From the NCBI GenBank assembly GCA_050084985.1, contig JBITNC010000001.1, positions 193,378,001 through 193,442,000 on the forward strand: DNA of 64,000 nt, read 5' to 3'. Every line of letters begins with the position of its first letter. The stretch's first letter is position 1. A program made the position numbers and the translations under genes. Below the pieces are notes generated by a model. The model had not been told where the DNA came from. It did not search any database and saw only the letters and a program-made list of their open reading frames with translations. Below are positions 2,290-50,050 of this stretch, one piece after another. This stretch comes from Nageia nagi. Lineage: Eukaryota > Plantae > Pinophyta.

Positions 2290-5200
2290 TTTCCTCGAAG
2301 TTGGCACCCATGAAGGTTTATTTGTTTTTGACTTCAGTATTGAGAATTTCCATAATTCCTTCATTCGTCAATAGATACATAGTGATGGTCTTTGAAGTCT
2401 TCTTCATCTCGCTGCACCATACTGCCATATTTGATCTGCTTGCCGGATTTAAGAACATTAATATCTTCAATTTCGAGGTAAGTGGTAATCATCAAATGGA
2501 CCTCATTTATCACCATGGCGTAGTCCTTGTTGCGTCCGTCTTCCTTGATCAGCCTTAGATCAAAGTGCTTCTTTGGTTTCTTCTATCCACTCCTCTTTGA
2601 CCGTTTGAATCCCAGTATTCAAGGAAATCTGCTTTCTGATGTCTTCAACTATCAGGTTAGTAGCTTGTATGTCAACGGTCAACCTTTTCTGTCTGGCCAA
2701 TTCTCTTTTAATCTCCTTGAGCTCTACCTCTTGTGATGTGTTCTCCTCTGTTAGCGCTGCAACATTGGAAACTATTGCATGTTTCGTGCCCAAAGTTCCG
2801 ATTGCCTTACATGGCTCTTCTTGCGTTTCCACTACTAGTGCAAATTCCCCAACAACATTTCTTTTTCTCCCTGCAGCAACAGTGTCGGTGACGATGGAGT
2901 TGTCCTTCATTGAGATGTAAGTGGCTAAACGCTCAAGTTCATTCCCTGAATCTTGATCGGTTTCAAGGTTGGCACGAGATTGAGATGGGTGATATGCTCT
3001 TAAATTTTTCAAGAGTGCTGCCATGTCGAAGTTGTAACCTGGTTCAAGACTAGCAACTGTAGTCACTTGTCTCTTAGGGTTCCCTTGGTGTTCATTCTCT
3101 CTCCTCTTCTTCCTATGGTCTTCATTTTCACCTTCATCCTCCTCATTTCCTCCATTCCCTCCTGATGAGGAAGCTATTCCCTTGGATGCTGAAATCCTTC
3201 TTGGAGCAAGTGGTGGAGGTTTTCTCTGAGGCGAAGGTGTCTTTCTTGATTGTTGAGGTTTAGAAGCCCGTGTAGAGGTGGGTTTTGTTGCTTGCATGGG
3301 TTCTCGCATAGTAGGAGGATTTATGGCTAGTATCTTCTCGATTGATGAATCTAATTCATTTGATTCATTGCCTGAGATATAAGGTATTTCAGGTATCTGG
3401 CTATCTTTTAAGGGCTCTCTCAAGAGGTCTCCTTCATCAATCTCATATTCATCCTCACTGTCATTGGAAGGAGGAGCAGGAGAACTCGGGCAAGAATGAT
3501 ATAATTGTCCATCTTGGGATGGACCTCTGGGAGGGACTTCCACCAGCTTCTTCAAGCGTTTGTAGGGGTGTGAAGTGCTACCAACCTCTTTAGTGCTCTT
3601 TATCTCTTGCGATAATCATTGTATGGTCTGATCAATAGTTTGCCTTGGTTGAACAATGAGTGTTGCATATGGATAAGATTGCCCCTATGTTAACCTCATG
3701 GAAGGTGAAATTGGTGCTGGTTCGTATGGAATCGAGGGATTCTTCTTAAGGATTATCAAAGGATGTATGCTGGCTACTGCATTCTTCTCTTGCATACCTC
3801 TTTTCTTTGTCTTCTTGGTTATTGTCTGCATGAGCTTCTCTTGTGTTGCCAAGTCCCTGTTTATCTTGTTAATTTGCTCTGTATCATTTACATTTCTGTA
3901 CCTTTTGAGCTTCCTTAGGGACTTGTGGGGGTAATTGGTTTGCCAGGTTTTCTTGAAAAATGTGTCGAGTACACCCTCAGGGTCATAGTACTCTATCGCT
4001 TGTTCTACTGTGAAGCCGTAGTATGCTAACTTTGTCTTCATTATTTCGACTTGACGCCAGGACGTGCATTTGTACTCCCCTATGCGGATGGGTAATTTGC
4101 AAGTGATGCCTTTCTTACACCAGACTTTCTTGTGTAGGGACGACAAGTGTCTTCAAAGTTCCATCATGATGAACGGATCACTTGCGTAATGGGGAAGTCT
4201 ATAAGGTGGTTCAATTGACCTGTAGACCCTGATATATGTGGCATCTGTTTCTTCAAGATAAAAATCAACATATCCTCGAAGAGCTTGTACTACCGTCTCT
4301 GATATTCTGGTCATATTGGTGGTCCCCTTTATCTCTTCATATATCTGGCATTCGAATCCATCATTCATCATTTTGAATTTGCCCCACTGGTTTTCCAAAA
4401 GGAATCTAGGGTAACCCCGCCATACTGGCATCTCTGCGTCAAATAGGTACTTGGTATCTGCAATGGCGTATCTTTTGTTCTTGCCATGTAAGAGTAGGAA
4501 CAAGTAAGAGCTCATGTAAAATCTTTTTGTTTCTACAAGTTTGGACATTTGTTGGGCCATGCAATCGCTAATCACCTTACTCCATCTGATGCCTTTGCCT
4601 CTGCTAATCTGATATATGAAACCCACAAACTCCTTTCTAAATCGTTGGTCATTCTCTTGCCCTATAATTCTACATAGCATGCTGATAATGGTAGAGATTG
4701 TAGGATAAAAATCTCTCCTCCCTGGTTGGCTTAAGGTCTTTGCCTTGTAATCTTTGCACTCGTCAACCAACCAATCTCTATTAAGTTCCTCGGCTTTGTC
4801 AGGTTGTTAAAGAATTTGACGAAGTCTATCATACTGAATATGATTCCCTCATTTCTCCAAGTGAAAGCGCTCTCTATTCCTTCCATAGTGAAGTCTAATA
4901 TTTTTGTGGCTTCAGTGTCAAGGAGGACTCTTTCCTTCTTGTTGTAGTATTTGGCTACCTCGAGGCACAATTCTAGAAATGGAGCGGTAAATGGGATCAT
5001 AGAGGCCTCAACGATTTTGGACTGAGCAAGTGTGTCGAGCAACCTTTCATATGGGATCTTGGATCTTTGTCAATGACTTGACGGGTCAGTGTGTGCCCAA
5101 TTTGTGTCTTTGATCTGTCCAAGATTGTTTACTATCACAGTTGTAGGGAAGGCAGCCTTCCCTCTTTTCTCCAAGGTGATCTTGTTAGTCTTCATGAGCC

Positions 5201-5300
5201 TCTCCATCTGGAGCTCCTTGTTTTTGTTAGCAATACTCATCGTTTATGCCTTGTGGAACACAACAGGGTGTTAGGAGTTATATTGGGTATCTTTAGAACG
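2290..5300 (-). pseudogene. Decayed accessory ORF of family X, a distant homologue of the family A LTR ORF
   Basis: ORF fragments 4731-5042, 4153-4770, 3685-4146 and 2560-3555 are collinear with the family A protein: PFTAPFLELCLEVAK vs PFAVPFPDLCSEVAK, IRWSKVISD...KRFYMSSYL vs IRWAGVISD...KRFYMNSYL, GGNGGNEEDEGENED vs GGNGGDEKDEGETEE. Frameshifted; both ends approximate. Confidence 0.8.
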
Positions 5301-6299
5301 ATTTTGGAGTGAAAAAGAGAGTCAAAGTTTTGGCCTATTTTTGGATTTTTGAGAGGCTAAGTGTGGATTTTCGAGAATTTTGAAGTTCATCGGAAGTGGG
5401 AAACAAATGGCAAATAAATTTAGAAGGCTTGTGAACAAGTCTTAGGGAAAAATATCGACTTTTCAATGTTCGAATTAACTCGCTATTTTTTTAGCCCATG
5501 TATTCATTTTTTGACAGGTTTTGGCAGCTTCGAAGTTAGGAAAGATGGGGATGCCAAGTGGGTTTTCAAGCTTCATTTGGGGGAAGTGAATAATAGAAGT
5601 TGCTCTCATATATGAGGTCTATGACTTTGGTATTCACTTCGAAGTTTGGATCTTTCAAAATTTGAGAGTTCTTAAGCCTTGAAAAAGCATTTTTTGTGTT
5701 TTTTTTCACGTTTTTTTGGAAAAGCTTGAAAATGGCCAAAAGATAGGGGGGGTCCGAAATTTGGAAAAATTTTAAAATGTGGATTTGACCTAATGGATGG
5801 ATAGAGGATGAGATTCTAAGGTTTTGAAAAAATTTGAAAAGGTTTATGTTGTGCCTACACAACACCCCCCCAAAATTTTTTGCATTTTGAGGACCCTCAG
5901 GAAACAAAAAAGGGTAGAGGATTGCATGGAAATTTGTCAAGAGGATGCATACCTTTCAGGCTAGTGTTAGGAACATGTTCAATCTGCATTTTCGTGGTAG
6001 TAAGAGCCAAAATCATGCACCTTTCCTCCTGTTGCATGTTTTCCATTGAGTGCTCTTGCACCCCCCTCAAGCCATGCGACCATCCAGCCTTGTCTTTGTC
6101 ATTTGCATCATCAAGTTTAAAAAATATCCTGAGGGCCTCCCATGTTGTACAAACCCCATTTGCATCTCATGTATTGTTTTGTGTCGAAAAATGCAATGGA
6201 AACACCCATTTTTGGCTGGTCACATGTTTTTGAGGGAGTGCTTTTGCACCCACTAGGAAAGGTGCAATTGGGCTGGACATCATCTCACACTTAGCATTT

Positions 6300-6790
6300 T
6301 TTAGTACATTTTGTTGTCGCATGCATTTCAAGGAGTCCTTTTGCACCCCTTCAAAAGGGTGCGACCAAGGTGGCAACTCATACTTAACATTTTTTTGTCA
6401 TTTTCGCATGCTTTGGAGTAAGTCCTTCTGGCACTCACCCAAAACCATGCGACAAGGAGATTCTATACTTAGTCAAATTTTGGAGCCTCAAAGGCTGTCA
6501 CATGCATTTCATGGAGTCCTTTTGGCACTCACCCAAAACCATGCGACCGATAGATTCTATACTTAGTCAAATTTTGGATCTTCAAAGGCTATCGCATGCA
6601 TTTCATTTAGTCAAATTTTGGATCCTCAAAGGCTATCGCATGCATTTCATGGAGTCCTTTTTGCACTCACCCAAAACCATGCAACCGACAGATTCTATAC
6701 TTAGTCAAATTTTGGATCCTCAAAGGCTGTTGCAAGGATCTAGATGAGTCCTTTTGCACTCGTCCAAAAACATGCGACTAGAAGGGAGAA
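6300..6790 (+). repeat. Degenerate tandem repeats (~90-bp unit) rich in ATGCGAC/GTCGCA motifs in the 5' part of family A
   Basis: Recurring GGAGTCCTTTTGCACTCACCCAAAACCATGCGAC...GATTCTATACTTAGTCAAATTTTGGA units. Equivalent arrays lie at ~21110-21500 and ~43760-44100. Confidence 0.8.
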
Positions 6791-7290
6791 AGGAAAATTG
6801 ACTAAGTGTTAAGCCTCATTGACAAGTGGAAGCCCATGCATTGGACCTCTTCCTATGCCTATCCCATGGTGACACATGTCCCACCTGGAAGGCTATAAAA
6901 GGGAAGTCAGCCCCCTTCATTTCAGTTTGCAAATTTGACTAGGAGCAAAGCATGGGAGAACTGAAGATAATGCACCCCTTCTTGGACGTGTGACCAAGGA
7001 CTACTTGAACTTTTTTCAACGTTTTCAGGTCCCAAGCCTTGGGAAGCATGCCAGGACTCAGGTGTAAGGATTTAAGCATGTGCTTTAGGAACCCATCCAA
7101 AAGGGTGCGACAAGGGGCTTAGGCTTCAAACTCAGTGTGAAATTTGGCCAAGTCACCCCCTTTTCGTAGTCGCATCATTTTCACCCTGTCCTTTTTGCAC
7201 ACTCCAAGAAACATGCAACCTTGTTATGGACCTCCTATTTGACCCTTAGGCCAACCATTAAGAAGGTGACACCTGGTAGTTACACTAACC

Positions 7291-7298
7291 TATAAATA
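7291..7298 (+). promoter_or_regulatory. Putative TATA box upstream of the LTR-encoded ORF
   Basis: CTATAAATA about 380 bp before the ATG at 7674. Conserved in copy 2 (20599-20607, -), copy 3 (44606-44613) and family X (13343-13350, -). Confidence 0.5.
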
Positions 7299-7673
7299 TC
7301 CCATCCCTTGAGCATTTTAAACACATAATTCCACAATCACCCCTCTTCTTAGTCGCACCATTTCTCTTGCATACCTAGGCACTCACTCTAAAACGTGCGA
7401 CCAAGGAGGAAAGAAGGATTTACGGATATTGCACATTTAGTTAGCTTTTCATGTCAACCACCGAACCCATTCGGACACTTTCAAGGCAATGCTTGAGGCA
7501 CTCACTCAAAACCATGCGACCTGATCTGGAGTGAGGAATTGTGTCTAAAAAATTGACTAAGTACCCTTGGTCCCAGTCGCATACTTTTCAAGCTGTGCTT
7601 TTGCACTCATCCAAAACTATGTGCCTAGATTGGTTAGACGTCTGGAGTTGAGAAGGGAAGGGTGATTTTCTCC

Positions 7674-10600
7674 ATGGCTTCGAGAATCAAAGTACCCCTA
7701 TTGAAAGCCAGAAAGGCCCAAAGCCAGTTGTTCGAGAGGCATGTGACTCAAAGCCAAATGACTAGGCTTTTGAAGGAAAGTCGGATAGAGTTTTAGCAGA
7801 AGGACAAATCAGAGCTCCCTGAAGCTAAATTCAAGGGGAAACACATCTTCGTTGGTGACACTGATTGGGGGAACTTGGACCCTATTCTAACCTTGGCCTC
7901 CTCGACCTGCATCAGTAAAGAAGACCTGTCAGAGGAACTTATCCACACATGCGGTTTGTTCAATGCCGCTATGATGCCATTTGTAGTACCTTTTCCTGAC
8001 TTGTGTAGTGAAGTGGCCAAGAAGTGTGACTTTAGCAAGAGGATTTTGCAGGACATAGAACGCAATGTGATCATGGACTTTTCCCTTGCCGGAATTGAAG
8101 CAACCTTTGGCTGGAAAAGATATGGGGATGTTTATACATTGGTTCATTCTGAAGAGTTCCATGACTCCACATCCTGACTTGGAGACTATACTCGACCTTG
8201 GCTACTTGAAGAGTTTCAAAACCTTATGATCAGTGCACAGAGAGATGAATTCCTGTCAGTTGTGGCAAAGTTGATCACCCTCTTGTCAAGGGTAACTAGT
8301 CAAGAAAATGATGCTAAGTACTAGAGAGAGTTCATAGATTTTATTGCTGCTATCAATTCAGGGAGACCTATCCGATGGGTTGGGGTAATCAATGATGCCC
8401 TGCGCTATCAATTGTCCTTTTTTGGATCCTCGAAGAGATTCTGTATGAACTTTTATTTGGTGTACCTCTTGCTACATGGCAAAGCCAGATCCAAGGAGCT
8501 GGCTAATGAAAGATACTTGGGTAGAAAAACATCCTTGTGTGGAGGGCATACCAAAAAAGGAGGTGCCAGAACAAGTTCCTATACGTCTATGAGAGGACCG
8601 ATTTTTGGGAGTATGATATCTACAAAGATATCAAAGGAGAATCCGTAGTGAAGAGGATTTTTGATGCAGCTACTGAGGCCATCAACATATATGCAGACTT
8701 CTTTCAGCAGGACACTGATTTTACATATATTAGAGTCTTTGGTTTAGAAGAACAACCCCTGCTCTTGCCTAGATTCGCCATTGATAGGTTGATTCTCAAG
8801 GAGAATGCTAGGCAGCTCTTGTTCCTGAAGAAGAGGGTTTGGAACAAGAAGAATGCCACAATAAATTTGGCTATTACTATATCTGGATATGTGTGCTAGA
8901 CATATGGGTGGAGGCAACGCATATGCGAGAGGAGCTACAATAGTACGGCTTCTTCAGAGAGGCTGCTGCTAAAAATTATGATCCTAAGGGGGTAATTATG
9001 TATTTTTATAATACAACTTTCATAGGCCCATCTCATTTCCACACAAGCCTTTGGGAGATGAGGAGAGGTATAGAAATGTACATGACAGAGGAGAAATTGC
9101 ACGCATAAAGGCTCTTTTGAGCAAGAAGGCGGCTTCCTTTCACGGAGAAAAACATTCTCAAAAGCCTCGAACTACCAAGCTCTGATCTAAAGAGGCCCCC
9201 TTGAGGATCAAGTCTCCTGCTCACACCATGTCCTCACTAAAGAAGACACCCTTGCTTCTTGCAAGGAAAAGACAACAGGCCTCGAGGGAGCCCATCCTGT
9301 GTCCTAGCAAGCGTAGTGTAGTAGAGGTTGATCTTAGAGATGTTGGATATCATGCTCTTGTCCCTGATGTGCTGGATGATGTGGTGAATACAACATGTGG
9401 TAGTGGTTCGTCCACCAAGACAATTCCTTCCAGATCCATCCATTCTCTTGGTCCAAGGGAGAAAGTTCCCCCTTTGCAACCAAGTTCTAGCTCTAGTTCT
9501 CAGAGGTCATCTTCTTCTTTTGATGAAGAAACTGAAGATCCTGACTGTATGATGGAAGATTTTGCAGAAAAATCGGAGAGCTGTAGCGAGAAAGAAGAAG
9601 AAGAAGATGAAGATGATGTTGACAATGCTACCAATATGCTTGAGCCAGAGGACGTAGTTGTAGATGCTTCCGCACTTGATGAAACCGAGATTGAAACCAT
9701 CCTGGATGATGAGATAGTGTATGTTGGAACCTATGATGATGACGTCCAGATAAGTGGTAAGAAATGCGCTAGAGAGGTGGCTGCATCTAAGTCCTCCTGC
9801 TGAACCTAGGAAGAAGTCTCCTTCGCACAAACCCTCTACCAAGAAGAGTCATGAGAGATCTTCCCAACTCTGAAGCAAACGAAGGAGGTGAAGAAGACGA
9901 AGGAGAGATTGAGAAGCAAAAAAAGAAGAGACGGTAGGAAGGGCATCAAGGCAAGGAAATGGCCTTAGTGTAGACCACTCTAGTGAAGGAAGTTAAGAAG
10001 TTAATAAAGGAAGATTGTTGGTTCAAAGGTTTCCCCTGCAACCAGCAACCAAACATCCAGATCTTGACCTGGATGCTTTCTTTAGAACCCTCAGCATGAG
10101 TACGGCTCATGATGAAGATATAGCCTAAAATCTGCATTCAGAAGATGAGGAGGAAGAATTTTCAGATGGAGAGAAGATTCAGAGAGTGGACACTTTTGTC
10201 TCCACCTCTTGAAAGGAGATCTCCATCAGCCATTGCTACTCGAAAGAGAAGCACCCTCAGAGAGCAGAGGACTGTGTCATTGAGACTTTCAAGATGCCAG
10301 TGAAACTAGGGTTGATAGCCAGGGAACACATTATTACTCAGAATGCAGCAGTCATGGAATAGGAAGGCTATGAAGCCAAAAAGGAGGTGAAGAGATTGAA
10401 AAAGGAACTCACGGCTAGCAAAAAGATTATAAATGAGTTCCAGAAAATTAGCACTATCCCTTTGCACCTACAGAAGCAGACTTCCTTCCATGAAGGATGG
10501 GAACTAATGAAGGAGCAGCTTAAGAATGAAGTGATGGAGGCCATCGAGAGATTGTCTTCACAGATTTACAAGCTCCTTACTGAAGGTGTTGAGGTCAGGG

Positions 10601-11168
10601 ATCTCAAAACTCATATTTTAGCACATCATGGCACGTTGGATAGCTACCTTCCCAACATTTCCCATTTGCAGCATATTTTCGCTGATAACCCAACAAAGTT
10701 GGTCTATTGTCATGAGTTCATCTATCATTATGATTGGTTGAACCATGCACTTGAGAAGTGCAACGCTGTCTTGAAAATCATGGCCCCCTTGTGAAAGGAT
10801 GTTGAGGAACAAATGAGTGAATATCTTTATTAGCTCAAGTTCCAAGGAAAGATAACAATGTCAGGAAGAAGGAAGCGGTATTGGCAGAGGCCCAGAACCT
10901 AATCCAGGAGCATCTTGAAGTTGACGATCTCAACTTGCTGAAAGCAGGGTATCCCATTATTCACGAGAGAGGGATGGTCATCTGGAGATACTAGATGCAA
11001 GCTATGATCAAGAAGATTGAGGGATACTTCCGGCAGAATGGAAGCACTGTTGGCATGATCTCTAGGAACGTGCGTAAGACCTTGGCGTTTTTGGGGGAGA
11101 TTGTTGAGTCCCACAGTCTCGCCAGCGAAGAGTGGAACTCCGTCTATGCCGAATCAGATCTGGCCTAG
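7674..11168 (+). pseudogene. Decayed ~1150-aa accessory ORF inside family A copy 1 (helical N-terminal domain, acidic/Ser-rich linker, coiled-coil-like C-terminus)
   Basis: ATG at 7674 (MASRIKVP...), fragments 7875-8177, 8537-8899, 9201-9803 and 10387-10794, ending ...EEWNSVYAESDLA-TAG at 11168. Stops and frameshifts differ between copies, implying one ancestral ORF. No RT, RNase H, integrase or protease motifs. Confidence 0.85.
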
Positions 11169-11579
11169 ATCTGATTCACCCGCATACTTCATTTGCGGTA
11201 TTTTTTTCTGTGTTCAATGCATATGGTTATGTCAGACTTTATTTTGATTTGACTGGTTTAGGGATGAGGTTTTGTTCCCGCCAGATCAAATCTATCAGAC
11301 TCATTTATGACTAACCGATGCAAGGATGAGGTTTTGCTCCTGCTGGTTTAGACGTCAGACCTTTTTCAGATTATTTATTGCATATCTGATTTTTTTTTGT
11401 TTGTTGCATAGATTAGAGGTAGAGTAGATGCATTTCGGTGGTGGCATTTATATTTTGTCAGTTTTAAATGCCATTTACATAGTTTTGTGTGAAGATATAT
11501 GATTTTGTATTGGTATGTGTGTTGCGTGTGTGCACACCATATCAGATTTGATGCCTTTAAGGCATCACTTCTAGTGGCC

Positions 11580-11587
11580 TATTTATA
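11580..11587 (+). promoter_or_regulatory. Putative LTR promoter TATA-like box (TATTTATA) about 1 kb before the 3' end once the nested insertion is removed
   Basis: GGCCTATTTATACCCC recurs at 16316-16323 (-), 49041-49048 and ~50985, with a variant at ~56230. It is positionally equivalent to the canonical CTATAAATA of family X (2041-2049, -). Confidence 0.45.
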
Positions 11588-11658
11588 CCCCACTTGGGCC
11601 ATTTAGAAAAGGGATTTTGGCATACAGAGCTTGCATGAGGAATCTATGCATATGATCT

Positions 11659-12322
11659 TGTGATGTTCCTTTTATTTTTATTTCTTTATTTCTAGCAAAC
11701 CCTCAATATAAAAATGCAGAAATAAATTGCAGCAATAAAATAACTCAGAAATTGCTCATAAAATAACACTAGTATGAGGAGAAATCAGCCAATATCATAT
11801 ATATTAAATATTTCCAAACCAATACAAAGCTGGAATGGACAAATGGAATCCTCACGAAACTAAAAATGCAGATACAAACTTTCCAAACTGAGTGAATCCC
11901 TCCACAAAAGAAATGCCACGAACCACTCACAGATGCCTCTTTTTGTATTTTTGATATTTTAGGGCAATAACACCTTCAATGATATTGCCAAGTCCCCAAC
12001 CATGCACCTCCAATGCACTATGGGAATGAGCAAGACCTGCAATCTCAACTCATGGAAACTCTAGGGTTTCAATATTCAATTCTCATATCACATAACATGC
12101 TCCAAATGAGATGCTCACTTCCTTTTATAGAATGAGGTTCTAATTTGGAGTTGACATCTCCTAACCCTAAAATCACTTAAAGTACCTTATTACAAAAAAA
12201 AAAAGTATAAAACATAAATAAACACAACTTAAGTTATGTCTCCTAGTCACATGAACCCCTTTTCCACTTTTATAATTAAGTGTAGGAGACATTTACAAAA
12301 TATTTATTTTTGGAACATTACA
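11659..12322. mobile_element. Solo LTR (664 bp) nested in family A copy 1
   Basis: TGTGATGTTCC...GGAACATTACA inverted termini and a perfect GATCT TSD. Absent from copies 2 and 3 at the same site. Confidence 0.92.
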
Positions 12323-13469
12323 GATCTTTGTACTATTTTTTGCATTAGACTTTTACATGTAATGAAAGCATCATACACTGGAGTTCTTGCATCCTGAGAT
12401 TGAAGCTATTGAGTTTATTTGTACAATCTTTTGAGCCTTTGCATGTCGTAAGATTCACATTCCATTGCATAGAAAATTGTTGCATAAGGGGTTCTATGCA
12501 TATTTTGCTGTTGAAAACCATTATGAATGTGTTTGTTTAGAGGAATAAAATCATAAAGTTATATTGTCAGGAACATCATTTGTGGGATTATGTATATTTG
12601 AATGGTTCTCTCTATGAACTGTAGGTTGATTATTTTGTGAAAAAGTCTAATCCTTATTTGCATAGTTTGCATGCAAGCAGATATATTCTGATGCTTATAG
12701 CTTGTCTTTATATCATTCGGTTAGGTTCCTACACTTATGGCTTCACTCTATCTTCACCCTTTCCATTGAGTCTTCCATAAAGATCCTATAGCTTCTTGCT
12801 CTTGTTTGCAAGTGATTTGAGTGTATTTGCTATTTGTTGCTCGGGTTGATAGTGAGTGTATTGACCTTAATGAATTTGAAGATGACCTGTCAAGACACTG
12901 TATCCCTGGTGACATCCTCATAGGTCTTTTCCTTTCCTCGCATTCATTTGCACTTATCCTTGTGTCTGTCCCTACATTTGTGATCTTTCTTCACTTTTGT
13001 TCACACTTGCAATCTTTTCTCATTAAGGAAAGGAATCCCGATGGGAGTTTCCCTTGTATACAATTAACAACATGCATCTATGACTTCTGAGCCATCAAGA
13101 CCATATTCCATGTGAACGCTTGAGGTAACCAATCATTTCAGGCGGGAATAAGTAACGCTGTTTCCTCCAAGTCTTGTGCATGTTTTGGGCGAGGAAAGAA
13201 AAACATACCAACAGTTTGGGGCTATTTTGGATCTTGTGAACAAATTTCAAGTTTTTGAGCAAGTTTGTGAGGATTTTGCTCAAAAATGGATGCATGGAGG
13301 CTCAAGGAGAGTGTTATGGGGCAAATGGAAGGCTTAGGGGGGTATTTATAGGGTTTTTGTGCCTTTTGCATGCTCCTTAGTAGGTTTTTGACCTAAAAAG
13401 TGCTCTATGGGCTCATTTTGCACATTTCTTAAGGTTTTGGAGACTTCAAACACTCCATAGGCTTGAAAA

Positions 13470-14760
13470 TCAGTGCCTAACTTTTGGAGGCATATTCTTT
13501 GGCAAAAATTAAAAAGTTCAAAGTCTAAACATCCTTATTTTCTCCTTCTCTACCCAATCAAGTGCAAAAAATCGAATTTTGGTGGGTTTTGGGGCTTTCT
13601 CCTTTCATCTAGGCACCGTTTTTCATTTTTTTGAAGTTTCCAATGGATTGCAAACCTGCGCCTGACTTTTTTTGGTATTTCTAGTGCTCAAATTCAAAAA
13701 TTTGCGGATCTACACATGCATAGAATGCCCTTTTCCATGCAACCATGTGAAAAAATTTGAATTTTTGCAAAATTTTTAATTCCTCTTCATGCTAGTCGCT
13801 GATTTTCATCTCATTGGATTTAGAAAAATTAGCAAACCAGCGCCTAGTATTAGGGGGCACTTCCGTTGCTTAAAATCGAAAAATTGCAAGTTTAAATGTG
13901 CTTATTTTCATGTTTTCCATGTAATTGACCCTTCAAAGTTGGATTTTGAGGCAAATTTTTGCAAGTTCTTGTTCCTAGGCGCTATATTTCACTCCATTGG
14001 ATTTCCAATGGCATGAAAAACTGCGCCTGCCTTTTAGGTGCCCTAAAATTGCTCAAAATCCAATTTTTGCAAGTTTAAATGTGTTCAAAATGGGGTTTTT
14101 CACCTAATGGACCCCTTGGAATCAATTTTTGGTGCATTTTTCACTTATCCCTCCAAGTTAGGTGCTAGAAATCACTCCTATGGATTTGGAAACATTAGCA
14201 AACCTGCGCCTAGCCTTTAGAGGGTCAAAACTTGCTCAATTTCAAAATTTTCAAGACCTAAATGTGCTATAAATCACATTTTACACCCAATGGACCCCTC
14301 AAACTTGAGTTTTGACCAAAACTTATCAAATTTCGTGATTCTAGGTGCTAGATTTCATCCCATTGGATTTCTATAGCTTTGGAAACCTGCGCCTAGCCTT
14401 TAGAGTGATCAAAATAAAAAATTTTGAGACCTAAATGTGTTTGCAATCATGTTTTCCTTGGTCCCAAGCACTTAAACTTGATTTTTGGTCAAAAAACATT
14501 CCATCTTGTCATTCTAGGCGCCATTTTTCATGCCAATGGATTTAAAAACATTCACCTAGCATTCTAGGGGTCTTCACTTGCTCAAAATAAAAAATTTTGA
14601 GCCCTAATGTGCCTTAGAACCTTCATTTCCACTCATTTATGCATTTATATTTGATTTTTGATGCATTTCCATTTTTTCTCCGCTTTCTAGGTACCAAAAT
14701 GCATCTCTATGGATTTCCCATAGGCTTGAAAAATTGCGCCTAGTCTTTGAGTGCCTTAGA
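13470..14760. repeat. Degenerate ~180-bp tandem repeat with TGCGCCTAG/CTAGGCGC motifs in the 5' region of family X
   Basis: The AAACCTGCGCCTAG-like motif recurs at ~13655, 13840, 14022, 14205, 14388 and 14735, usually with nearby CCATTGGATTT and AAATGTG blocks. Confidence 0.75.
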
Positions 14761-15342
14761 CTTGGGACTGATCTTCAACTTCTTTTTTGGTACCTTGTTG
14801 TCCTTACCATCAGGGAGCTTTTTGCTTTTGAGTGCCTTATAGACGCATTTGGCTTGTAGATAAAGACTTCATTATCTGGTTGCAACAATATCTTTTCTTC
14901 TGCTGTTGCACTTTGCTTCTTTGGGATATTTATGCATACTTCTAGCTTGCCCTTTCCCTCTTTTATATTATTGTAACTTGACTCTTTAGTGTTCGAAGGT
15001 TTTAACTCTATGTTGACCTTACCCAAATCTTGTCTCTTACTCACCTGAGGAGAGTTCAGAGATTGCAAACCAGAGTTGCTATGTTTCCTACCACACAGTT
15101 CTATGATTTTAAAACTTTCAGGTGCCTTGATTTTCTCTAAATCGATAAAAATCGATGTATTGCCTAGAGGGTTTGCACTAGCTTGCTTGGAAACCCAACT
15201 CTCCTTCAAATTACTCTTCTTAACAGTATCTTCCATCTTTTCCTCTGGAAAATTCACACCTGCTATACTCTAACCTTTTGCCCTCCTAGCTCTTGTTCGA
15301 GTTGCTATACTAGGAACTTTGTTGTCCTGCACAGACAGGTTC

Positions 15343-18300
15343 TATTGGTATGTTTTTCTTTCCTCACCCAAAACATGCACAAGACTTGGAGGAAACAACG
15401 TTACTTGTTTCCGCCTGAAAGGATTAGTTACCCCAAGTGGTCACATGGAATATGGTTTTGATGGCTCAACAATTAGAGATGCATGTTGTTAATCGTATAC
15501 AAGGGAAATACACACCGGAGATCCTTTTCTTAATAAGGAAAGATTGCAAATGTGAACAGAAGCAAGGAAAGATCACAAATGCAGGGACAAACACAAGGAT
15601 AAATGCAAGGGAATGCGAGGAAAGGAAAAGACCTATGAGGACATCACCAGAGATACAATGTCGTGGCAAGTCATCTTCAGATTTATTAAGGTCGATGCAC
15701 TCACTATCAAGCTGGTTAGCAAATAGCAAATATGCTCAAATCACTACCAGGCGAGAGAAGGAAGCTGTAAGGTCTTTATGGAAGACTCAATGGAAAGGGT
15801 AAAGATGGAGTGAGAGCGTAAGTGCAGTAACCTAACTGAATGATATAAAGATAAGCTGTAGGCCTCAAAATATATCCATTTGTGTGCAAACTATGCAAAG
15901 AAGGATCAAACTCTTTCACAAAATAATCAATATGCAGTTCATAGAAAGAACCATTCAGATATGCATAATCTCACAAATGATGTTCCTCACAGTATAACTT
16001 TATGATTTTATTCATCTAAACAAAACACATTCATAATGATTTTCAATAACAGAACATGCATAGAATCCCTTATGCAGCAATCTTCTATGCAATGGAATGT
16101 GAATCTCATGACATGCAAAGGCTGAAAATGATTGTACAAATAAACTCGATAGCCTCAATCTCAAAATGCAAGAACTCCAATATATGATGCTTTCATTACG
16201 TGCAAAAGTCCAATGCAAAATAGTACAAAGATCATATGCATAAACTCTTCATGTCAAAATTCCTCATGCAAAAATCTTGTATGTCAAAATCCTTTTCTAA
16301 ATGGCCCGAGTGGGGTATAAATAGGCTACTAGAAGTGATGCCCTAAAGGCATCAAATTTGATATGGTGTGCACACATGCAACACACATATCGATACGAAA
16401 TCAAATATCTTCACACAAAACTATGTAAATGGCATCTAAAGCTGACAACATATAAATGCCACTGCCAAAATGCATCTATTCTACCTCTAATCTATGCAAC
16501 AGATAATCATATATGCAATAAATAGTCTGAAAATGTTTGACATCCAAACCGGTGGGAGCAAAACCTTATCCTTGCACCGGTCAAAGTCATAAATGAGTCT
16601 AACAGATTTGATTTGGCGGGAGCAAAACCTCATCCCTACACCAGTCAAATCAAAATAAAGTAAAGTCTGACATACCCAACATAACCATATGCATTTAACA
16701 GAAAAAAAAGATACCATAGATGAAGTTTGCGGGTGAATTAGATCTAGGCCAGATCTAATTCGGCACAGACGGAGTTCCACTTCTCGTTGGTGAGACCATA
16801 GGACTCAACAGTCTCCCCCAGGAATACCAAGGCCTTTCGCATGCCCTTGGAGATCATGCCAACAATGCTGCCATTTTGTCAGAAGTATCCCTCAATCTTC
16901 TTGATCGTAGCTTGCATCTGATATCTCTAGATGACCATCCGCCTCTCGTGAATAATAGGATGCCCTGGCTTTAGTAAGTTGAGATCATCAATCTCAAGAT
17001 GCTCCTGGATTAAATTCTGAGCCTATGCCAACATCGCCTCCTTCCTAACATTATTATCTTCCCCCTGGAACTTGAGCTAATAAAGATATTCACTCATTTG
17101 TTCCTCTAATCTCCTTTCGCAAGGGGATTCTGATCTTTAGGACCATGTTGCACTGTTCAAGTGCTTGGTTCAACCAATCATGATGATAGGTGAACTCATA
17201 GCAGTAGACCAACTTCTCAGGGTTATCGGCATGAATGTACTGTAGATGGGAGACGTTGGGAAGATAACTATTCAACGTACCAAGGTGAGTTTAAATCTGC
17301 ATTTTGAGATTCCTCATCTCAACACCTTCGGCAAGGAGTTTGTAAATCTGTGAAAACAATCTTTCGACGGCCTCCATCACTTCGTTCTTAAGCTGCTCCT
17401 TCATCAATTCCTATCCTTCATTGAAGGAAGTCTGCTTCTGCAAGTGCAAAGGAGTGGTGCTAATTTTCTGGAACTCCTTTATAATCTTTCTGCTGGCCGT
17501 GAGTTCCTTCTTCATTTTCTTTACCTCCTTTTTGGCTTCAGAGCCTTCCTGTTCCATGACTGCAGCGTTTTGGGTGACTATGTTTCCTTGCTATCAACCC
17601 TAGCTTAACTGGCATCTTGAATGTCTCAATGATGCAGTCCTCCACCCATTGAAGATGCTTCTCTTTTGAGTAGCAATGACTAATGGAGATCTCCTTTCGA
17701 AAGGTGGAGACAAAAGTGTCCACCCTTCAAATCTTCTCCCCATTTAAGAGTTCTTCCTCATCCTCAGAACACAGGTCCTGATCTATATCTTCATCATGAG
17801 CTGTACTCATGCTGAAGGCTGTAAGGCAGGCATTCAGCTCAAGATCTGGATGTTCGGTTGCTGGCTGAGAGGGAAACCTTTGAACCAACAATCTTCCTTT
17901 GTCAATTTTCTTGACCTCTTTCGCTAGAGTGGTCTGCACTATGGCCATTTCCTTGCGTTGATGCTCTTCTTGCTTCCTTTTCTTCTTTTTCTCCTTAGTC
18001 TCTCCATCTTCTTCATCTCCTTCGTTACCGCCTATAAATAAGCCCTTGCTCTAGAGTTGGGGAGATTTCTCATGACTCCTCTTGGTAGAGGGTTTGTGCG
18101 AAAAAGGAGACTTCTTCCTATGTTCGGCAGGAGAGGACTTGGATGTAGCCACCTTCTAGCGCACTTCTTAAAAATCTGGACGTCTTCATCATAGGTGCCA
18201 ACGTCCACTATCTCATCTTCTAGGATGGTTTCGACTTCAGTCTCATCAGGTGCTGAAGCACCAATGGCTACATCCTCTTGCTTAGACATATTGGCAGCAT

Positions 18301-21300
18301 TGCCATCATCATCATCTTCTTGTTCTTCCTCGCTACGGCTCTACGATTCTTCTGAAAAATCCTCCACCGTACGGTCAGGATCTTCAGTCTCTTCAACGGA
18401 AGAAGAAGAGGAACACTCAGAACTAGAGCTAAAACTTGGTTGCAAAGGGGGAACTTTCTCCCTTGGAGCAGGAGAATGGGCGGATCTAGATGGAATCGCC
18501 TTAGTAGACAGAACACTGCCACATGCTGTATTCACCACATCGTCTAGCACATCTGGGGGAAGAGTATGATATCCAGCATCTCTAAGATCAACCTCTACTA
18601 CATTGCATTTGCTAGGACCTAAGATGGGCTCCCTTGGGGCCTCATTCTTTTTCCTACAGGAAGCAAAGGTGTCTTCTTTGGTGAGGATGTGGTGTGGAGT
18701 AGGAGACTTGATCTTCAAGGGGACCTCTTTAGATCAGGGCTTGGTAGTCCGAAGCTTTTGAGTAGGTTTTTCTCCTTGAAGTGGAGCCTTCTTCTTGCTC
18801 AAAAGAGCCTTTATGCGTGCAATTTCTCCTCTGTCATGTACATTTCTATACCTCTCCTCATCTCCCAAAGGCTTGTGTGGAAACACGATGGGCTTATGAA
18901 AAGCTGTATTATAAAACACACAATTATCCCTTTAGGATCATAATTCTTAGCAGTAGCATCTTTGAAGAAGTTGTACTGCTGTAGCTCCTCTCGCATATGC
19001 GTTGCCTCCACCCATATGTCTAGCACACATATCCAGATATAGTAATAGGCAAATTTATTGTGGCATTCTTCTTCTTCCAAACCCTCTTCTTCAAGAACAA
19101 GAGTTGCCTGGCATTCTCCTTGAGAATCAACCTGTCACTGGCGAATTTGGGCAAGAGCAGGGGTTGTTCTTTTGAACCAAAGACTAATATATGTAAAATT
19201 GGCGTCCTACAGAAAGAAGTCTGCATGTATGCTGATGGCTTGAGTAGCTGCATCAGAAATCCTCTTCACTACGGATTCTCCTTTGATATCTTTATAGATA
19301 TCATATTGCCAAAAATCGGTCCTCTCATAGACGTATTGGAACTTGTTCTGGCTTTTTTGGTATGCCCTCCACACAGGAACATTTTTCTACTCCAAGTATC
19401 TTTCATTAGCTAGCTCCTTGGATTTGGCTTTGCCATGTAGCAATAGGTACACCAGATAAGAGTTCATATAGAATCTCTTTGAGGATCCGAAAAAGGACAA
19501 TTGATAGTTCAGGGCATCATTGATTACCCCAGCCCATCGGATAGGTCTCCCGGAACTGATAGCAGCAATAAAATCTTTGAACTCTCTCTGGTACTTAGCA
19601 TCATTTTCTTGATTGGTTACCCTTGACAAGAGGGTGATCAACTTTGCCACAACTGGCAGTAATTCATCTCTTTGTGCACTGATCAACCTCTGCCCTTGAA
19701 GGTTTTGAAACTCTTTAAGTAACCAAGGTCGAATATAGTCTCTAGGCCGGGATGTGGAGTCATGGAACTCTTCAGAATGAAACAGTGTATAATCATCCCC
19801 ATATCTTTTCCAGCCAAAGGCTGCTTCAATTCCGGCAGGGGAAATGACCGTGATCACATTGCCTTCTGTGTCCTGTAGAATCCTCTTGCTAAAGTCACAC
19901 TTCTTGGCCACTTCACTGCATAGGTCAGGAAAAGGTATTGCAAATGGTATCATGGTGGCATTGAACAAACCGCATGTGTGGATAAGCTGCTCTGATAAGT
20001 CTTCTTTGCTGATGGAGGATGTGGAGGCCTGTCACCAACGAAGATGTGTTTCCCCTTGAATTTGGCTTCAGGGAGCTTTGATTTTTCCTTCTGCTGAAAC
20101 TCTACCAGACTTTCCTTCAAAAGTCTAGTCATCTGGCTTTTGGTTACACGCCTCTCATACAACTGGCTTTGAACCTTTTTAGCTTTCAATGGGGGTGCTT
20201 TGATGCTCAAAGCCATGGAGAATCCCATTCAACTCCCCTCTCAACTCCAGATGTCTGACCAATCTAGGTGTACAATTTTGGATGCATGCAAAAGCATAGC
20301 TTGAAAAGTGTGCGATTGGGCCTAGGGTTAGTTAGCCAATTTTTTTTTTTGAACACAATTCTTCGCTCCAGATTTGTGCGCATGGTTTTTGATGAGTGCC
20401 TTTAGCACTACCTTGAAAGTATGTGACTAGGTCCCAAGGGTGAACTGAAATGCCTTAGTCAAATGCAACGATTCGAAACCATCCTCTTCCCTTGGTCGCA
20501 CGTTTTAGAGTGAGTGCATAATCATGCATGAGAAATGGTGCGACTAGGAAATGGAGTGATTCTGAAATGGTGTGTTTGAAATGCTCAAGGGGGTGGGATA
20601 TTTATAGGTTTGTGTAATTGCCATTTGTCACTTTCTTATTGGTTCGTCTAAGGGTCAAATAGAAGGCCCACAACAAGGTCGCATGTTTCTTGAGGAGTGC
20701 AAAAGGATAGGATGAAAATGATGCGACTAGGAAAGGGGGTGACTAAGTCAAATTCCAAACTTAGTTCGAAGCCTTAGTCCCTGGTCGCACCCTTTTGGAT
20801 GGGTATCCAAAGCACTCATCTTAATGCTTACGCTTGATTGGGCATGCTTCCCAAGGCCTGGGATCTAAAAAACTTTGAAAAAAGTGCAAGTGGTCCTTGG
20901 TCGCATGTTCAAGAAGGAGTGCCTTTTCTTCTTATCTCCCATGCTTTACCCTAGAAGAACTTGCAAACTGAAATAAGGGGGCTAAATTTCCCTTTATAGC
21001 CCTTCGGATGGGACACGTTTCAATATAGGATAGGCGTAGATGGAGGTCCAATGCACGAGCTTCCACTTGTCAACGAAGTTCAACACTTAGCTAATTTTCT
21101 TCTTACCATTCTAGTTGCATGGTTTTGGATGAGTGCAAAAGGACTCATCAAAATCCTTGCAACAGCCTTTGATGCTCGAAAAAATGACCAAGTGTCCTTC
21201 ACCTTGGTTGCACCCTTTTGAAGGGGTGCAAAAGGACTCTTCACAATGCATGCGATAGCCTTTGGGCATCTCCTTGGTCGCACCGATTCCAATGAGTGCA

Positions 21301-21960
21301 AAAGGACTCACTCCAAAACGTGCAACGGCCAAAAATATGCTAAGTATGAAGTTGCTTGTTGCACCCTTTTGAAGGAGTGCAAAAAGGACTAATCTCAAAT
21401 CATGCGACAAGAAGAAAAATGCTTAGTATAAGTTGCTTGTCACACCCTTTTGGAGAGGTGCAAAAGGACTCCAGAAAATACATGCGACAATTGAATGCAA
21501 AGAAAAAAAATGTATGTATGAGATGATGTTCAACCTGGTCCCAGCTTCCCTAGAGGGTGCAAAAGCACTCCCTCAAAAACATGTGACAAGCTGAAAATGA
21601 GAGTTTTCCTTTGCATTTTCGACAAAAAACAACATATGGGATGTAGATGGGGTTCCTATAACATGGAGGTCTTCAGGATGCCTTCAAATCTAAACATGCA
21701 AACGATAAAAACGGAGAAGGCTGACTAGTCGCATGGTTTGAGAGGGGTGCTAAAGCACTCATTGAAAAACATGCGACATGCTGAAAAATGCATGATTTTG
21801 GTTTCAACTTACCATGAAAATGCAATCTAAACATATTCCCAAGACTAGATTGAAAGATGTGCATCTTCTTTGACAAACTTTTCATGCAATTCCTCTTTTG
21901 TTTCCTTGAGGGTCCTCAAAATGCAAATTTTTTTTGGAGGTGTGTTGTGTAGGCACAACA
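15343..21960 (-). mobile_element. Giant solo-LTR-like element, family A copy 2 (6618 bp)
   Basis: Reverse-complement termini at 21960 (...AGGCACAACA) and 15343 (TATTGGTATGTTTTTC). Perfect TSD GGTTC at 15338-15342 and 21961-21965. Confidence 0.93.
16744..20216 (-). pseudogene. Decayed accessory ORF inside family A copy 2
   Basis: ATG at 20216 (MALSIKAPPLKAKK), fragments 19387-19968, 19020-19253, 18341-18718 and 17090-17275, stop at 16744. Confidence 0.85.
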
Positions 21961-23410
21961 GGTTCGCTAAGTGGGAAGTGGCTTTGCCGTGTGTCAATTC
22001 CTTCACACTTCTAATAGAGATGAACGTTGAAGTAGCATCAGCCTCTTTAGTATCTAGGTTAACCTTCTTTTCCTTACTTTCCTTCCCTTGCTTGACACTA
22101 CTTTTGGAAACCAATTGGGCTAGGTTGGACCTTTTGGTTTCTTTAAGATTTGGTTTTGAAATTTTCTTGGGCACCAGTAGATCAATTTTACTACTTTCCC
22201 CAACCTCTCTAACTCTTTTCTGTTAACCCTTAACTTTGACCACCTTGGCTAAAGGAATATTGTCATCATCTTCATTACTATTCATATTAGAAGACTGTGT
22301 TCCACATGCAATGTCTGAATGACTAGGAGCTTGACCATCACTATTGCCTTTATTTTTCTCAAACACTTGCCCCTCTGCCCTAACCTTAAACTTGGGAATT
22401 TGCCTATCCAATGCCTCGAGGTAAACAAGAAAAATTACAGACTCATGGAGAGGCATCGCAACAATATTTCATCTAAATCTTTCAATAGAATATTCTATAG
22501 AGTTGCAAATGAAGAACGGAAAGTTCAATCTGTCTGAATATGGGAGCTTGAAATGATTAAGAAAATTGAAATGGTAGGCATAAACAACCCTGAATCTGCC
22601 TTCAATAGTTACATACATCATCAACGCCTTTACTAGTCCCTTCCACAGATTTGGTAGACATTCTCGACTCACACCTGACTGCATTTTTGTCAACTTAAAA
22701 TGCCTTTTGAAACTATTCGCAAACTTATCTCTGGCCTCCAATTTTCTTCTTTGGCCTCTCTCTTGACTTCTAAACCCTCATTTGGAATGTGAATGGCTTT
22801 AGCAATTGTCTCTGGGGAGATAATGAATTGAATATTGTTGTATCTGCAGGTTCCTTCATTCCAAGACTCAGCCACAACAAAAGATAACTGCCTATCAAAC
22901 CCTTTGCATGCTAGGATAAAATCTCTAAGACCACCCTCTACTAGCATCTTCCAAATCTTAGAATCCTTTTGAATTTTTGCATGGTCACTCGGCTCTGTTC
23001 TAATAACTTCATCACCTATCTCCTAAGCTCCAGAGCACCTACTGCTAAGGCTAAGAGTCGGATCGCTAAAAAGGATTGGGGAGCCTTTTTGCTGATTGAA
23101 TGAACCCAAGCACCATGGTAGGACATCATGACACTCCTTACATCCACTTTCGCAACTTGGAATCATGCAATCGAGAGGAGGTGCCACAGGACATTAGCCA
23201 CATGTCCCTTCGAAATCTGTTGGGAAGAGCACTACATATAATCACATGATGGCTTCGACTAATCTCACATGAGGTAATTCAGGCACAAACAAAGATGACA
23301 TATGAATCATCACTTAGACTTGAAAGAGCCCAAAAGAATAAAAGATTCACACTGGTCACCTTGCAACAGATATCACCTCAACATCAATCATAATTAGATT
23401 TTGGGTTGGA

Positions 23411-24870: not shown

Positions 24871-24991
24871 TTTTTTGAAAAAGGCATAAACTTTTAAATC
24901 TAAAGGATCTGAAACTACTACCAAGCTAAGAGAAAGTGAGTGACAAAAAAAGGTGCACCTATCATACAAATTCCAATCAATCATAATCGGA

Positions 24992-27164: not shown

Positions 27165-27497
27165 AGTCATCACCCTAGTCATGTCGTGAATAGCTGAATG
27201 GAGCTCATCAAACTTTTCTTTGGGAGTCGATCCTCGAATTGGAGTAGAGCTCCTCCTCCTGGAAGCCCTCTTCCTATCACCCTGCTCCTCCTGCTCCTCT
27301 CCCTCATTATTGGAATTTCTCTCCTCCTGTGTTCCATTCATCAATGGCCGTCTCTCATCTTGGATGGCTCTCTCTGCTGTCTCCTTAGATCTTCCGCTCT
27401 TCCTAGCGAACGCCATCTCTCTCTTGCTGGATCTGGTATAGTAGCGGTGGATTCTGGGTCTCATGCACAGGCTGGCCAGATTCAGGCTTTGATACCA
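27165..27497 (-). mobile_element. tRNA-iMet PBS (27485-27497) and start of a gag-like ORF
   Basis: Minus-strand TGGTATCAAAGCC lies 2 nt from the LTR end and is followed by the open frame HRYYTRSSKREMAFARK... Confidence 0.75.
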
Positions 27498-27499
27498 CT

Positions 27500-36156: not shown

Positions 36157-36169
36157 GAAGGAAAGATAC

Positions 36170-50020: not shown

Positions 50021-50033
50021 TAAGAGACCATTC

Positions 50034-50050
50034 TAGCACTAGAAGGAGGG
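50034..50050 (+). promoter_or_regulatory. tRNA-Asn-type primer-binding site
   Basis: TAGCACTAGAAGGAGGG differs by two G>A changes from TGGCGCTAGAAGGAGGG, the complement of the recalled plant tRNA-Asn 3' end. It lies 13 nt after the copy 3 end. Confidence 0.7.

Follow-up and report, generated by a model that had tools for sequence, protein, structure and literature searches.

Genes encoded within LTRs are known from retroviruses, in which the coding sequences of MMTV sag and HIV nef lie in U3 and are copied into both LTRs. Among plant elements, long LTRs are accompanied by additional ORFs in Ogre, with LTRs of 1.9–6.5 kb and one or two extra ORFs (PMC6431247), and in Retrosat2, with LTRs of over 3.2 kb, an ORF0 and many solo LTRs (PMC3485330). 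TatII and TatIII are Ty3/gypsy elements of gymnosperms (OTA superclade). For TatII, supplement file 3 of PMC6317226 records 5/4-bp duplications, with a tRNA-Asn PBS in 15% of its elements and extra ORFs in sense orientation in 23% (5′) and 26% (3′). The extra ORFs of TatIII carry a PMD (PMC6317226, PMC4408406), and those of Tat often encode a PMD together with a coiled coil (PMC4408406); in the cited passages on Tat/Ogre extra ORFs, their function is described as unknown (PMC4408406, PMC7264820, PMC6317226). The PMD is reported to be structurally similar to the DUF1985 domain of VANC (10.1101/2024.09.27.615353; PMC13547354), a protein that has been described as dicot-specific (PMC13547354). 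The targets of VANC are short family-specific motifs massed in non-coding tandem repeats, and those of VANC21 share one orientation (PMC5735166). Among the titles and abstract openings searched, drawn from outside the subscription journals, we found neither a plant ORF located inside an LTR nor retrotransposon anti-silencing by such an arrangement.

Results

The window, that is, the whole 64,000-nucleotide stretch of DNA analysed, contains three units of one family (family A), located at 5847–13213 (copy 1, plus strand), 15343–21960 (copy 2, minus strand) and 43301–50020 (copy 3, plus strand), which are 78–91% alike depending on the section compared. Their left ends read TGTTG or TATTG and their right ends CAACA or CAATA; ends of the TG..CA type hold overall, with TA in place of TG/CA at two of the six ends. 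Copies 1 and 2 are solo-LTR-like. Copy 2 is bounded by the duplication GGTTC, which matches at 5/5 positions (chance about 0.001), and copy 1 by GTTTA/GTTTG, which match at 4/5 (chance of at least 4/5 about 0.018). Comparing the first 2.5 kb of each copy with its last 2.5 kb revealed no direct repeat (best E 0.14). A preliminary description of this DNA had claimed the three units, 5-bp target duplications at copies 1 and 2 and the absence of an internal direct repeat; the coordinates and ends of all three are confirmed, the duplication is perfect at copy 2 and one position short at copy 1, and the absence of a repeat is borne out.

Several relatives, overlooked in the preliminary description, lie nearby. 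Copy 1 is inserted into an element of a sister family (family C), whose downstream part (1111–5846, minus strand) contains a homologous broken gene and a TATA box 939 bp from its TGATCA end, and whose upstream part (13214–14760, minus strand) consists of repeats with five AGGCGC..GCGCCT pairs and a TATA box; the far end of this element was not found in the window, and we therefore do not class its gene as LTR-internal. Subfamily B is represented by copy 4 (52085–57320, plus strand), in which the left end is absent and the broken gene is 67–72% alike to family A at the DNA level, and by the last 1.1 kb of another unit (50981–52084, plus strand), which is joined to gag. The left end of a further sister unit, D (36155–37459, minus strand), has a different 105-bp repeat and seven GTCGCA..TGCGAC pairs at 44 bp. 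Outside the window, a metagenome scan with a 23-mer from the right end returned 13 loci, one of which (L010) is a true relative, the other 12 being otherwise unlike the window; no relatives were found among viral and prokaryote contigs.

Each of the three units contains a gene, situated at 7674–11168 in copy 1 (plus strand), 16744–20216 in copy 2 (minus strand) and 45102–48622 in copy 3 (plus strand; about 1,160 codons). The copies share a start ATG (7674, 20216 and 45102), and a stop is common to copies 1, 2 and 4 (11166, 16746 and 55823) and L010. The gene was once under purifying selection and is now broken in every copy. The open frame of about 3.5 kb described previously is absent throughout: the longest open piece in any copy is 273 aa, and copies 1, 2 and 3 have accumulated 12, 14 and 9 indels (9, 8 and 5 of them not multiples of three) together with in-frame stops, which number 13, 10 and 9 on the codon grids used. 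One stop-codon column is common to all four window copies, whereas the frame continues across it in L010 and in 32 of 113 relatives. The dN/dS check suggested in the preliminary description did detect purifying selection, with values of 0.05–0.44 in 30 of 40 pair-by-region comparisons (dS is saturated in the other 10) versus 0.76–1.14 in six shifted-frame controls. Changes private to single copies are spread evenly over the codon positions of the N-terminal domain (42/32/40), as expected from decay after insertion.

The gene product consists of a folded N-terminal domain, a basic and then acidic low-complexity linker and a conserved C-terminal part. It has 132 relatives at E ≤ 0.001, among which the only named ones are distant hypothetical proteins of Taxus chinensis. 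A model of the N-terminal domain (pLDDT 82, pTM 0.79) was compared with 48,161 chains in two structure searches, and VANC21 (9lnk_A), an anti-silencing protein that binds DNA, was the only chain with Z ≥ 5 in both. This match has a Z of 6.9 (rmsd 4.6, 236 residues aligned; next row 3.0) in one search and 5.5 (rmsd 4.9, 220 aligned; next 3.7) in the other, values that fall below the safe level of Z 8 and, at 6–7% identity, may according to the tool's own warning reflect a common arrangement. The aligned part of the domain corresponds to 45270–46100 in copy 3 (plus strand). Foldseek returned nothing at E ≤ 0.001, Pfam searches with 114 members at E ≤ 0.05 gave no match to PMD (PF10536), DUF1985 or DUF287, and a PDB sequence search and a protein atlas yielded no usable family for the protein. 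Neither a transposase nor an integrase of the RNase H fold was found for the N-terminal domain by Pfam and fold searches, or for the C-terminal part by Pfam; the known DDE transposase that the preliminary description had named as an outcome against its model finds no match in these searches. A viral RdRP atlas match (score 0.90, 131/256 features, recognition 1485) was below the tool's own thresholds and was discarded. Judging from the predicted fold, the N-terminal domain is probably kin to VANC and PMD.

The 5′ 1.8 kb of each unit contains inverted pairs of the form GTCGCA..TGCGAC, which number 8, 9 and 8 in copies 1, 2 and 3 (shuffle mean 0.03–0.06, maximum 1); no such pair occurs elsewhere in the unit. 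In copy 3 the eight pairs, which are candidate binding sites, occupy 43481–44951 with the arms 44–45 bp apart. The single motif TGCGAC occurs 12, 11 and 14 times in the three 5′ parts and is absent from the genes and 3′ parts (shuffle mean about 0.25). A spacing of 44–45 bp is found in 21 of 27 near-exact pairs, and the arms are about 89% kept while the spacers are 35–53% alike. Two sister families have the layout in common and the motif in variant form; family C has AGGCGC pairs and lacks GTCGCA, and its protein is 30–35% identical to that of family A. The short unit of L010 (unit G) carries motif pairs, spaced at 40–42, and no gene. Retention of CpG was higher in the motifs (39/51, against 27/60 in the 5′ part and 186/321 in the rest), a comparison that we set aside for its uneven classes.

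The encoded protein may have bound the inverted pairs in its own LTR, a suggestion we put at slightly short of even. It is also conceivable, if somewhat unlikely, that in a gene-bearing giant LTR the pairs are hairpins or cruciforms, serving RNA packaging or template switching or surviving as relics of inverted duplications, and that the protein had a different function, for instance in activating transcription or handling RNA. When folded as RNA, 7 of 10 pairs beat all 200 shuffles and those of unit G form near-perfect hairpins (the pairs were chosen for complementary arms), and the self-complementarity of family A spacers is 0.32–0.68, so a structural role is possible; moreover, the VANC21 match is middling, and the acidic stretch of the linker (net −15 in 50 residues) would suit an activator. 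Hairpins do not, however, account readily for arms and spacing that are kept despite divergence of the spacers, or for an arm sequence that shifts by family along with the protein, and the sole structural neighbour of that protein is a sequence-specific DNA binder.

Inspection of the right side of copy 3 shows a 17-mer PBS-like site (50034–50050, plus strand) 13 bp after the unit, which may resemble a tRNA-Asn PBS, followed by a decayed gag (50222–50985, plus strand; Pfam Retrotrans_gag E 5.2e-14) that is cut off at about 50980. Unit, site and gag have the right order, strand and distance for a 5′ LTR and its interior. The usual distance from LTR end to PBS is 2–5 bp, and that seen here is longer; the PBS-like motif was not found in any paper in our literature search. 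One contig from run X4 departs from the window 5 bases past the unit end and enters a PBS-like stretch, which indicates that there is another version of the junction that differs from the one in the window. Summed contig depth, which is not a copy number, drops at the right end in all four runs (from 3308 to 77 in run X1). No RNA data set was among the sequencing runs listed, which says nothing about expression, and rows from air metagenomes were left out. Copy 3 lacks a target duplication, in keeping with a 5′ LTR, and is bordered on the left by the protease region of a different gypsy element. The earlier statement that gag and pol are lacking therefore applies inside the units and fails just beyond copy 3, which, with a PBS-like motif and gag adjoining its right end, is likely a 5′ LTR and not the solo unit it was taken for. 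Neither a 3′ LTR, a polypurine tract nor pol of its element was seen in the window, and a weak search for a longer relative of the gag piece found none; the segment at 50981–52084 was rejected as the 3′ LTR, as it is 88.7% alike to copy 4 versus 81.4% to copy 3.

We conclude that the unit is probably the LTR of an LTR retrotransposon. It is improbable that it is instead a non-autonomous element without LTRs that an integrase acting in trans moves as a whole, and that it lies beside gag at copy 3 by chance. Such an element would fit the absence of a sister LTR and of pol, the 13-bp spacer, the rearranged surroundings of copy 3 and the lack of a PBS after five of six family A/B right ends (copies 1, 2 and 4, the end at 52084, and L010), but it leaves the correct placement of the PBS-like site and gag and the second junction of the X4 contig to coincidence. 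In the established scheme of LTR replication, reverse transcription needs repeats and primer sites, and a unit possessing neither internally has no evident route to solo reverse transcription.

Two promoter-like boxes flank the gene at consistent places, in agreement with the fixed layout proposed at the outset. The first, which reads TATAAAA at 44212–44218 in copy 3 (plus strand) and 6894–6900 in copy 1 and lies at about 20990 in copy 2, is likely the promoter of the gene. The second, TATA-like box (CTATTTATAC at 49037–49049, plus strand) is 981 bp from the right end of copy 3; this distance is 981–982 bp except in copy 1, where about 0.7 kb extra near 11650–12320 offsets it to 1635 bp. The sequence of the second box is TATTTATA in families A, B and G and the canonical TATAAATA at the same place in family C, for which reason we rejected an antisense TATA. 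Across A, C and G it is located 922–982 bp from the unit end and is preceded by the same TAGGGCA(A/T)CA stretch. From this position and conservation, the second box is likely the promoter of the genomic RNA. If it does start that RNA, the gene is part of U3 and passes into both LTRs by copying, a placement that we consider fairly likely. The previously proposed LTR with a U3 gene has thus gained a PBS-like site and gag for its first part, and its second part depends on where transcription of the genomic RNA would begin.

The gene could alternatively lie in R/U5, as an absorbed 5′ extra ORF akin to Ogre ORF1 or Retrosat2 ORF0, with the first TATA box starting the genomic RNA; the first box is indeed canonical where the second is TATTTATA, and 5′ sense extra ORFs are listed for 23% of TatII (PMC6317226, supplement file 3). 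The similar distance of the second box from the end in A, C and G, its canonical form in family C and the shared stretch before it make this arrangement quite improbable, and its strong-stop DNA would have to be almost 6 kb long. DNA transposons of the integrase type also have TG..CA ends. A Ginger-like or VANDAL-like DNA transposon with the gene as its transposase or helper, a thought prompted also by the origin of VANC in VANDAL DNA transposons (PMC5735166), is highly improbable, given that the inverted match of the TGTTG..CAACA ends stops after 5 bp, that Pfam and fold searches gave no transposase or integrase family and that gag adjoins copy 3.

Discussion

We tentatively favour a giant LTR of a Tat-like Ty3/gypsy retrotransposon that carries a gene of predicted VANC/PMD fold and candidate target sites. 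In such an element, transcription of the gene would begin from the first TATA box and that of the genomic RNA from the second, roughly 1 kb before the unit end, placing the gene in U3 and hence in both LTRs. The protein would bind the inverted pairs in the same LTR and allow the promoters of the element to escape silencing, an anti-silencing role that is possible but less likely than not. Recombination between LTRs would leave gene, promoter and target sites as one solo cassette, as in copies 1 and 2, and copy 3 would be a 5′ LTR whose interior was deleted later. A broader and rather doubtful proposition is that conifer-type Tat LTRs carry VANC-like sequence-specific anti-silencing, in which protein and sites co-diverge by family and every solo LTR, as a self-contained cassette, can go on providing the protein in trans, also for short relatives that retain the sites and no gene.

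Neither the predicted VANC-like fold nor the motif pairs figured in the preliminary description, which assigned no function. Together they place a protein and its candidate DNA target in one unit, with different motifs in several families. If the proposal is true, sequence-specific anti-silencing extends from dicot DNA transposons to gymnosperm LTR retrotransposons and has implications for the filling of giant genomes by these elements. When the LTR contains the gene, the gene would survive solo-LTR formation, the usual deletion route of the host, and elements with two 6.7-kb LTRs may escape LTR finders with lower length limits or be mislabelled by them.

The 5-bp duplication and sense ORF are like those of gymnosperm TatII, a lineage recognised by RT phylogeny and by an aRH domain between protease and RT; no pol of this element was seen in the window, and we call it Tat-like on that account. 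Unlike in TatII and TatIII, the gene here forms part of the repeat. The PMD-bearing extra ORFs of Tat/Ogre lie between the LTRs, whereas this gene is inside a duplication-bounded unit. Ogre and Retrosat2 likewise combine a long LTR with an extra ORF, but published descriptions put theirs either internally or ahead of gag-pol, and here the gene makes up 3.5 of 6.7 kb. Unlike MMTV sag and HIV nef, the present gene is that of a plant element; it is several times their length and is accompanied in the repeat by a TATA box of its own. VANC is encoded by Mutator-like VANDAL elements, is by description dicot-specific and contains a DUF1985 domain, and VANC21 motifs share one orientation; the units described here have LTR-type ends, adjacent gag and no transposase found, their host is conifer-like, going by distant relatives in Taxus, their protein has no DUF1985 match and their motifs form inverted pairs of set spacing. 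The two systems are nonetheless alike in conserved domains linked by variable regions and in a short family-specific motif that is dense in the element's own non-coding repeats, and VANC21 is the nearest structural neighbour of the predicted fold.

Three old units of a high-copy repeat

Self-comparison of the window recovered the three full-length units of the preliminary description, here termed family A, at 5847-13213 (copy 1, forward strand), 15343-21960 (copy 2, reverse) and 43301-50020 (copy 3, forward). Their left ends read TGTTG or TATTG and their right ends CAACA or CAATA. Copy 2 is flanked by the target duplication GGTTC and copy 1 by GTTTA/GTTTG; no duplication was found at the flanks of copy 3. 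The copies are old, given a sectional identity of only 78-91% and differences private to a single copy of 6.5-7.3% in each. A stretch of ∼0.7 kb in copy 1 (11650-12320) has no match elsewhere in the window. Comparing the two terminal 2.5-kb stretches of each copy at high sensitivity upheld the absence of an internal direct repeat (best E 0.14). In four public sequencing runs, 3,129 to 12,680 contigs per run were placed on 43000-53000, with a sharp drop in depth at 50014 in all four; neither measure gives copy number, and the counts establish the unit as a high-copy repeat.

The gene was selected before it decayed

An intact ORF of ∼3.5 kb had been ascribed to each unit, which proved incorrect: the longest open frame inside the units is 273 codons, and indels and in-frame stops break the gene in every copy. 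The start ATG is nevertheless common to copies 1-3, and the final stop, ∼1,160 codons downstream, is common to copies 1 and 2, to copy 4 (a subfamily B unit lacking its left end, 52085-57320, forward) and to a true relative in the metagenome locus L010. Indels that are not a multiple of three number 9 of 12 in copy 1, 8 of 14 in copy 2 and 5 of 9 in copy 3. The 55 in-frame stops listed over five copies fall into 43 columns, 9 of them common to at least two copies. In one column a stop is shared by every copy in the window, from both subfamilies (45963, 19389, 8522 and 53389); this stop adjoins a 1-bp gap in copy 1, and the column is read across in L010 and in 32 of 113 relatives. Repeated decay is the likely cause, read-through a less likely one.

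The check for purifying selection came out in favor of a gene, with dN/dS of 0.05-0.44 in those comparisons, 30 of 40, for which dS was measurable, against 0.76-1.14 in six shifted-frame controls. Differences fixed between subfamilies are biased to third codon positions (for example 1/4/21), whereas private differences in the N-terminal domain are not (42/32/40). Thus, the gene is genuine yet dead in these copies, having been under selection while the family was active and having decayed after insertion.

Relatives and predicted fold of the N-terminal domain

A search with the first 623 residues against 1.84 billion representatives returned 132 matches at E ≤ 0.001, mostly fragments. Relatives with a named organism were present in 2 of the 20 clusters looked up, both of them distant hypothetical proteins of Taxus chinensis (25-30% identity), which makes a host of conifer type likely. 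No relative was found in viral and prokaryote contigs, and no Pfam family is common to the 114 aligned members. L010 also holds, at 12639-13574 (reverse), a distant relative of the C-terminal part (∼20% identity, E 1e-14).

Folding of the N-terminal 466 residues, with stops entered as X and together with 113 relatives, gave a model with a pLDDT of 82 and a pTM of 0.79. Foldseek returned no match for this model or for one of the domain alone. Against 48,161 chains, VIA-align placed a sole chain at Z ≥ 5, that of VANC21 with DNA (9lnk_A; Z 6.9, rmsd 4.6, 236 aligned, 7% identity; next row Z 3.0), which is below the safe level of the tool. With the domain-alone model, VANC21 was once more the top chain (Z 5.5, 220 of 281 residues; next 3.7), likewise below that level, and the two models are not independent, most of their input being common to both. 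The predicted likeness spans most of the domain and stands well clear of other chains, yet remains below the safe level. It agrees with prior knowledge, since earlier reports describe PMD and the DUF1985 of VANC as structurally alike (bioRxiv 10.1101/2024.09.27.615353; PMC13547354) and Tat extra ORFs as encoding PMD, either alone or together with a coiled coil (PMC4408406).

Inverted motif pairs and the slot between the two boxes

With both strands counted, the 5′ 1.8 kb contains 12, 11 and 14 instances of the hexamer TGCGAC in copies 1, 2 and 3, respectively, and the genes and 3′ parts of these copies contain none (shuffles, ∼0.25). Copies 1, 2 and 3 hold 8, 9 and 8 inverted GTCGCA..TGCGAC pairs, where shuffles average 0.03-0.06, and none lies in the remaining 4.9-5.5 kb. 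Of 27 near-exact pairs, 21 have a spacing of 44-45 bp. For 24 modules selected on their left arm and center, 16 of 144 right-arm bases are mismatched when the best of three offsets is taken, and the spacers are 35-53% alike. An orphan left end of a sister unit (36155-37459, reverse) carries 7 such pairs at 44 bp although its 105-bp repeat is a different one; its 105-bp and 26-bp tandem repeats both bear the family A motif.

The element hosting copy 1 (family C; 1111-5846 and 13214-14760, reverse) has a homologous gene (30-35% identity) in the same order of repeats, TATA box, gene and second TATA, the latter 939 bp from a TGATCA end. It has five AGGCGC..GCGCCT pairs and no GTCGCA; its far end was not found in the window. 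Immediately upstream of its repeats lies a decayed extra-ORF-like gene, without a Pfam family, that is split by copy 2 (14775-15342 and 21961-23050, reverse). A 2.6-kb unit inserted into a copy of the larger family in L010 (7028-9612, reverse) has similar end motifs and both boxes, the second 922 bp from the end, but no trace of the gene: only ∼400 bp separate the boxes, and a 96-codon frame without a Pfam hit is alone in the slot. It carries GGCGCA pairs at 40-42 bp and near-perfect 50-bp palindromes. As read from sequence, these layouts indicate that the content of the slot varies and that the motif differs by family.

We tentatively favor a cassette model. Genomic RNA would start at the second, TATA-like box, ∼1 kb from the right end, making all sequence to its left U3, which would be carried over to both LTRs. 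The accessory gene would be driven from the first box. Its product, probably dimeric in view of their symmetry, would bind the pairs that surround the promoter of the gene, and by analogy with VANC would keep the LTR from silencing. Solo-LTR formation would then leave the entire cassette of gene, boxes and pairs behind. A bolder and less probable version is that the anti-silencing protein in the LTR and its targets also diverge together. Such a unit may have arisen as plus-strand priming shifted upstream and U3 took in an extra ORF from the 3′ part of the interior, along with the repeats belonging to it. It is also possible, though less likely, that the pairs act as hairpins, 7 of 10 folding better than all shuffles, or that the protein has another function.

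Copy 3 adjoins a gag gene

The LTR-retrotransposon reading, which the cassette model extends, was supported in part. Copy 3 had been described as solo, a view contradicted by what follows its right end on the same strand: 13 bp, a PBS-like 17-mer, which we take to resemble a tRNA-Asn primer-binding site, and a decayed gag (Pfam Retrotrans_gag, E 5.2e-14). One contig of a single run departs from the window 5 bases past the unit end and enters a PBS-like stretch after a spacer that is 2 bases shorter; this single contig may represent another allele of the locus. The gag ends abruptly at ∼50980, fused to the terminal 1.1 kb of a unit from subfamily B (88.7% identity to copy 4, 81.4% to copy 3), and copy 4, present as its right 5.2 kb, comes next. 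On the left, copy 3 borders protease-region sequence from a different gypsy element. This arrangement fits a full element that inserted in the protease region and later lost its interior; no 3′ LTR, polypurine tract or pol of that element was seen within the window. An LTR-less element is improbable with gag and a PBS-like site adjoining copy 3, and placing the gene in R/U5 is more improbable still. A DNA transposon is very hard to credit.

The gag-protease stretch that received copy 3 adjoins a ∼1.2-kb LTR (40478-41689) of another gypsy family, whose other LTRs lie at 27497-29450, 34938-36154, 58800-59812 and 60191-60883 (68-76% alike). The window also holds a LINE-like remnant with a zf-RVT domain (23500-24900, reverse; Pfam E 5e-06) and, at ∼61595, an LTR-like end followed by a primer-site motif, presumably of tRNA-Met type, and short tandem repeats.

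Comparison with known systems

The family would fit gymnosperm TatII elements in duplication length and sense extra ORFs and, if the PBS-like site is of tRNA-Asn type, in PBS type; its own pol, on which membership turns, was not seen in the window. Long LTRs and extra ORFs are already known: Ogre LTRs measure 1.9-6.5 kb (PMC6431247) and those of Retrosat2 >3.2 kb (PMC3485330), and the sources consulted position extra ORFs between the LTRs (PMC7264820; PMC6317226), whereas here the gene lies within the repeat unit. In the literature covered, mainly titles and the starts of abstracts, we found neither a plant LTR described as enclosing a gene of this kind nor a description of the motif pairs; subscription papers and repeat databases may hold a precedent. 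VANC targets are short motifs that differ between families and cluster in non-coding tandem repeats (PMC5735166), and the motifs here are likewise short, family-specific and in 5′ repeats. Those of VANC21 have a single orientation, whereas these form inverted pairs that can also fold as hairpins. Under the cassette model the protein would be VANC-like in action, without being classed as a VANC.
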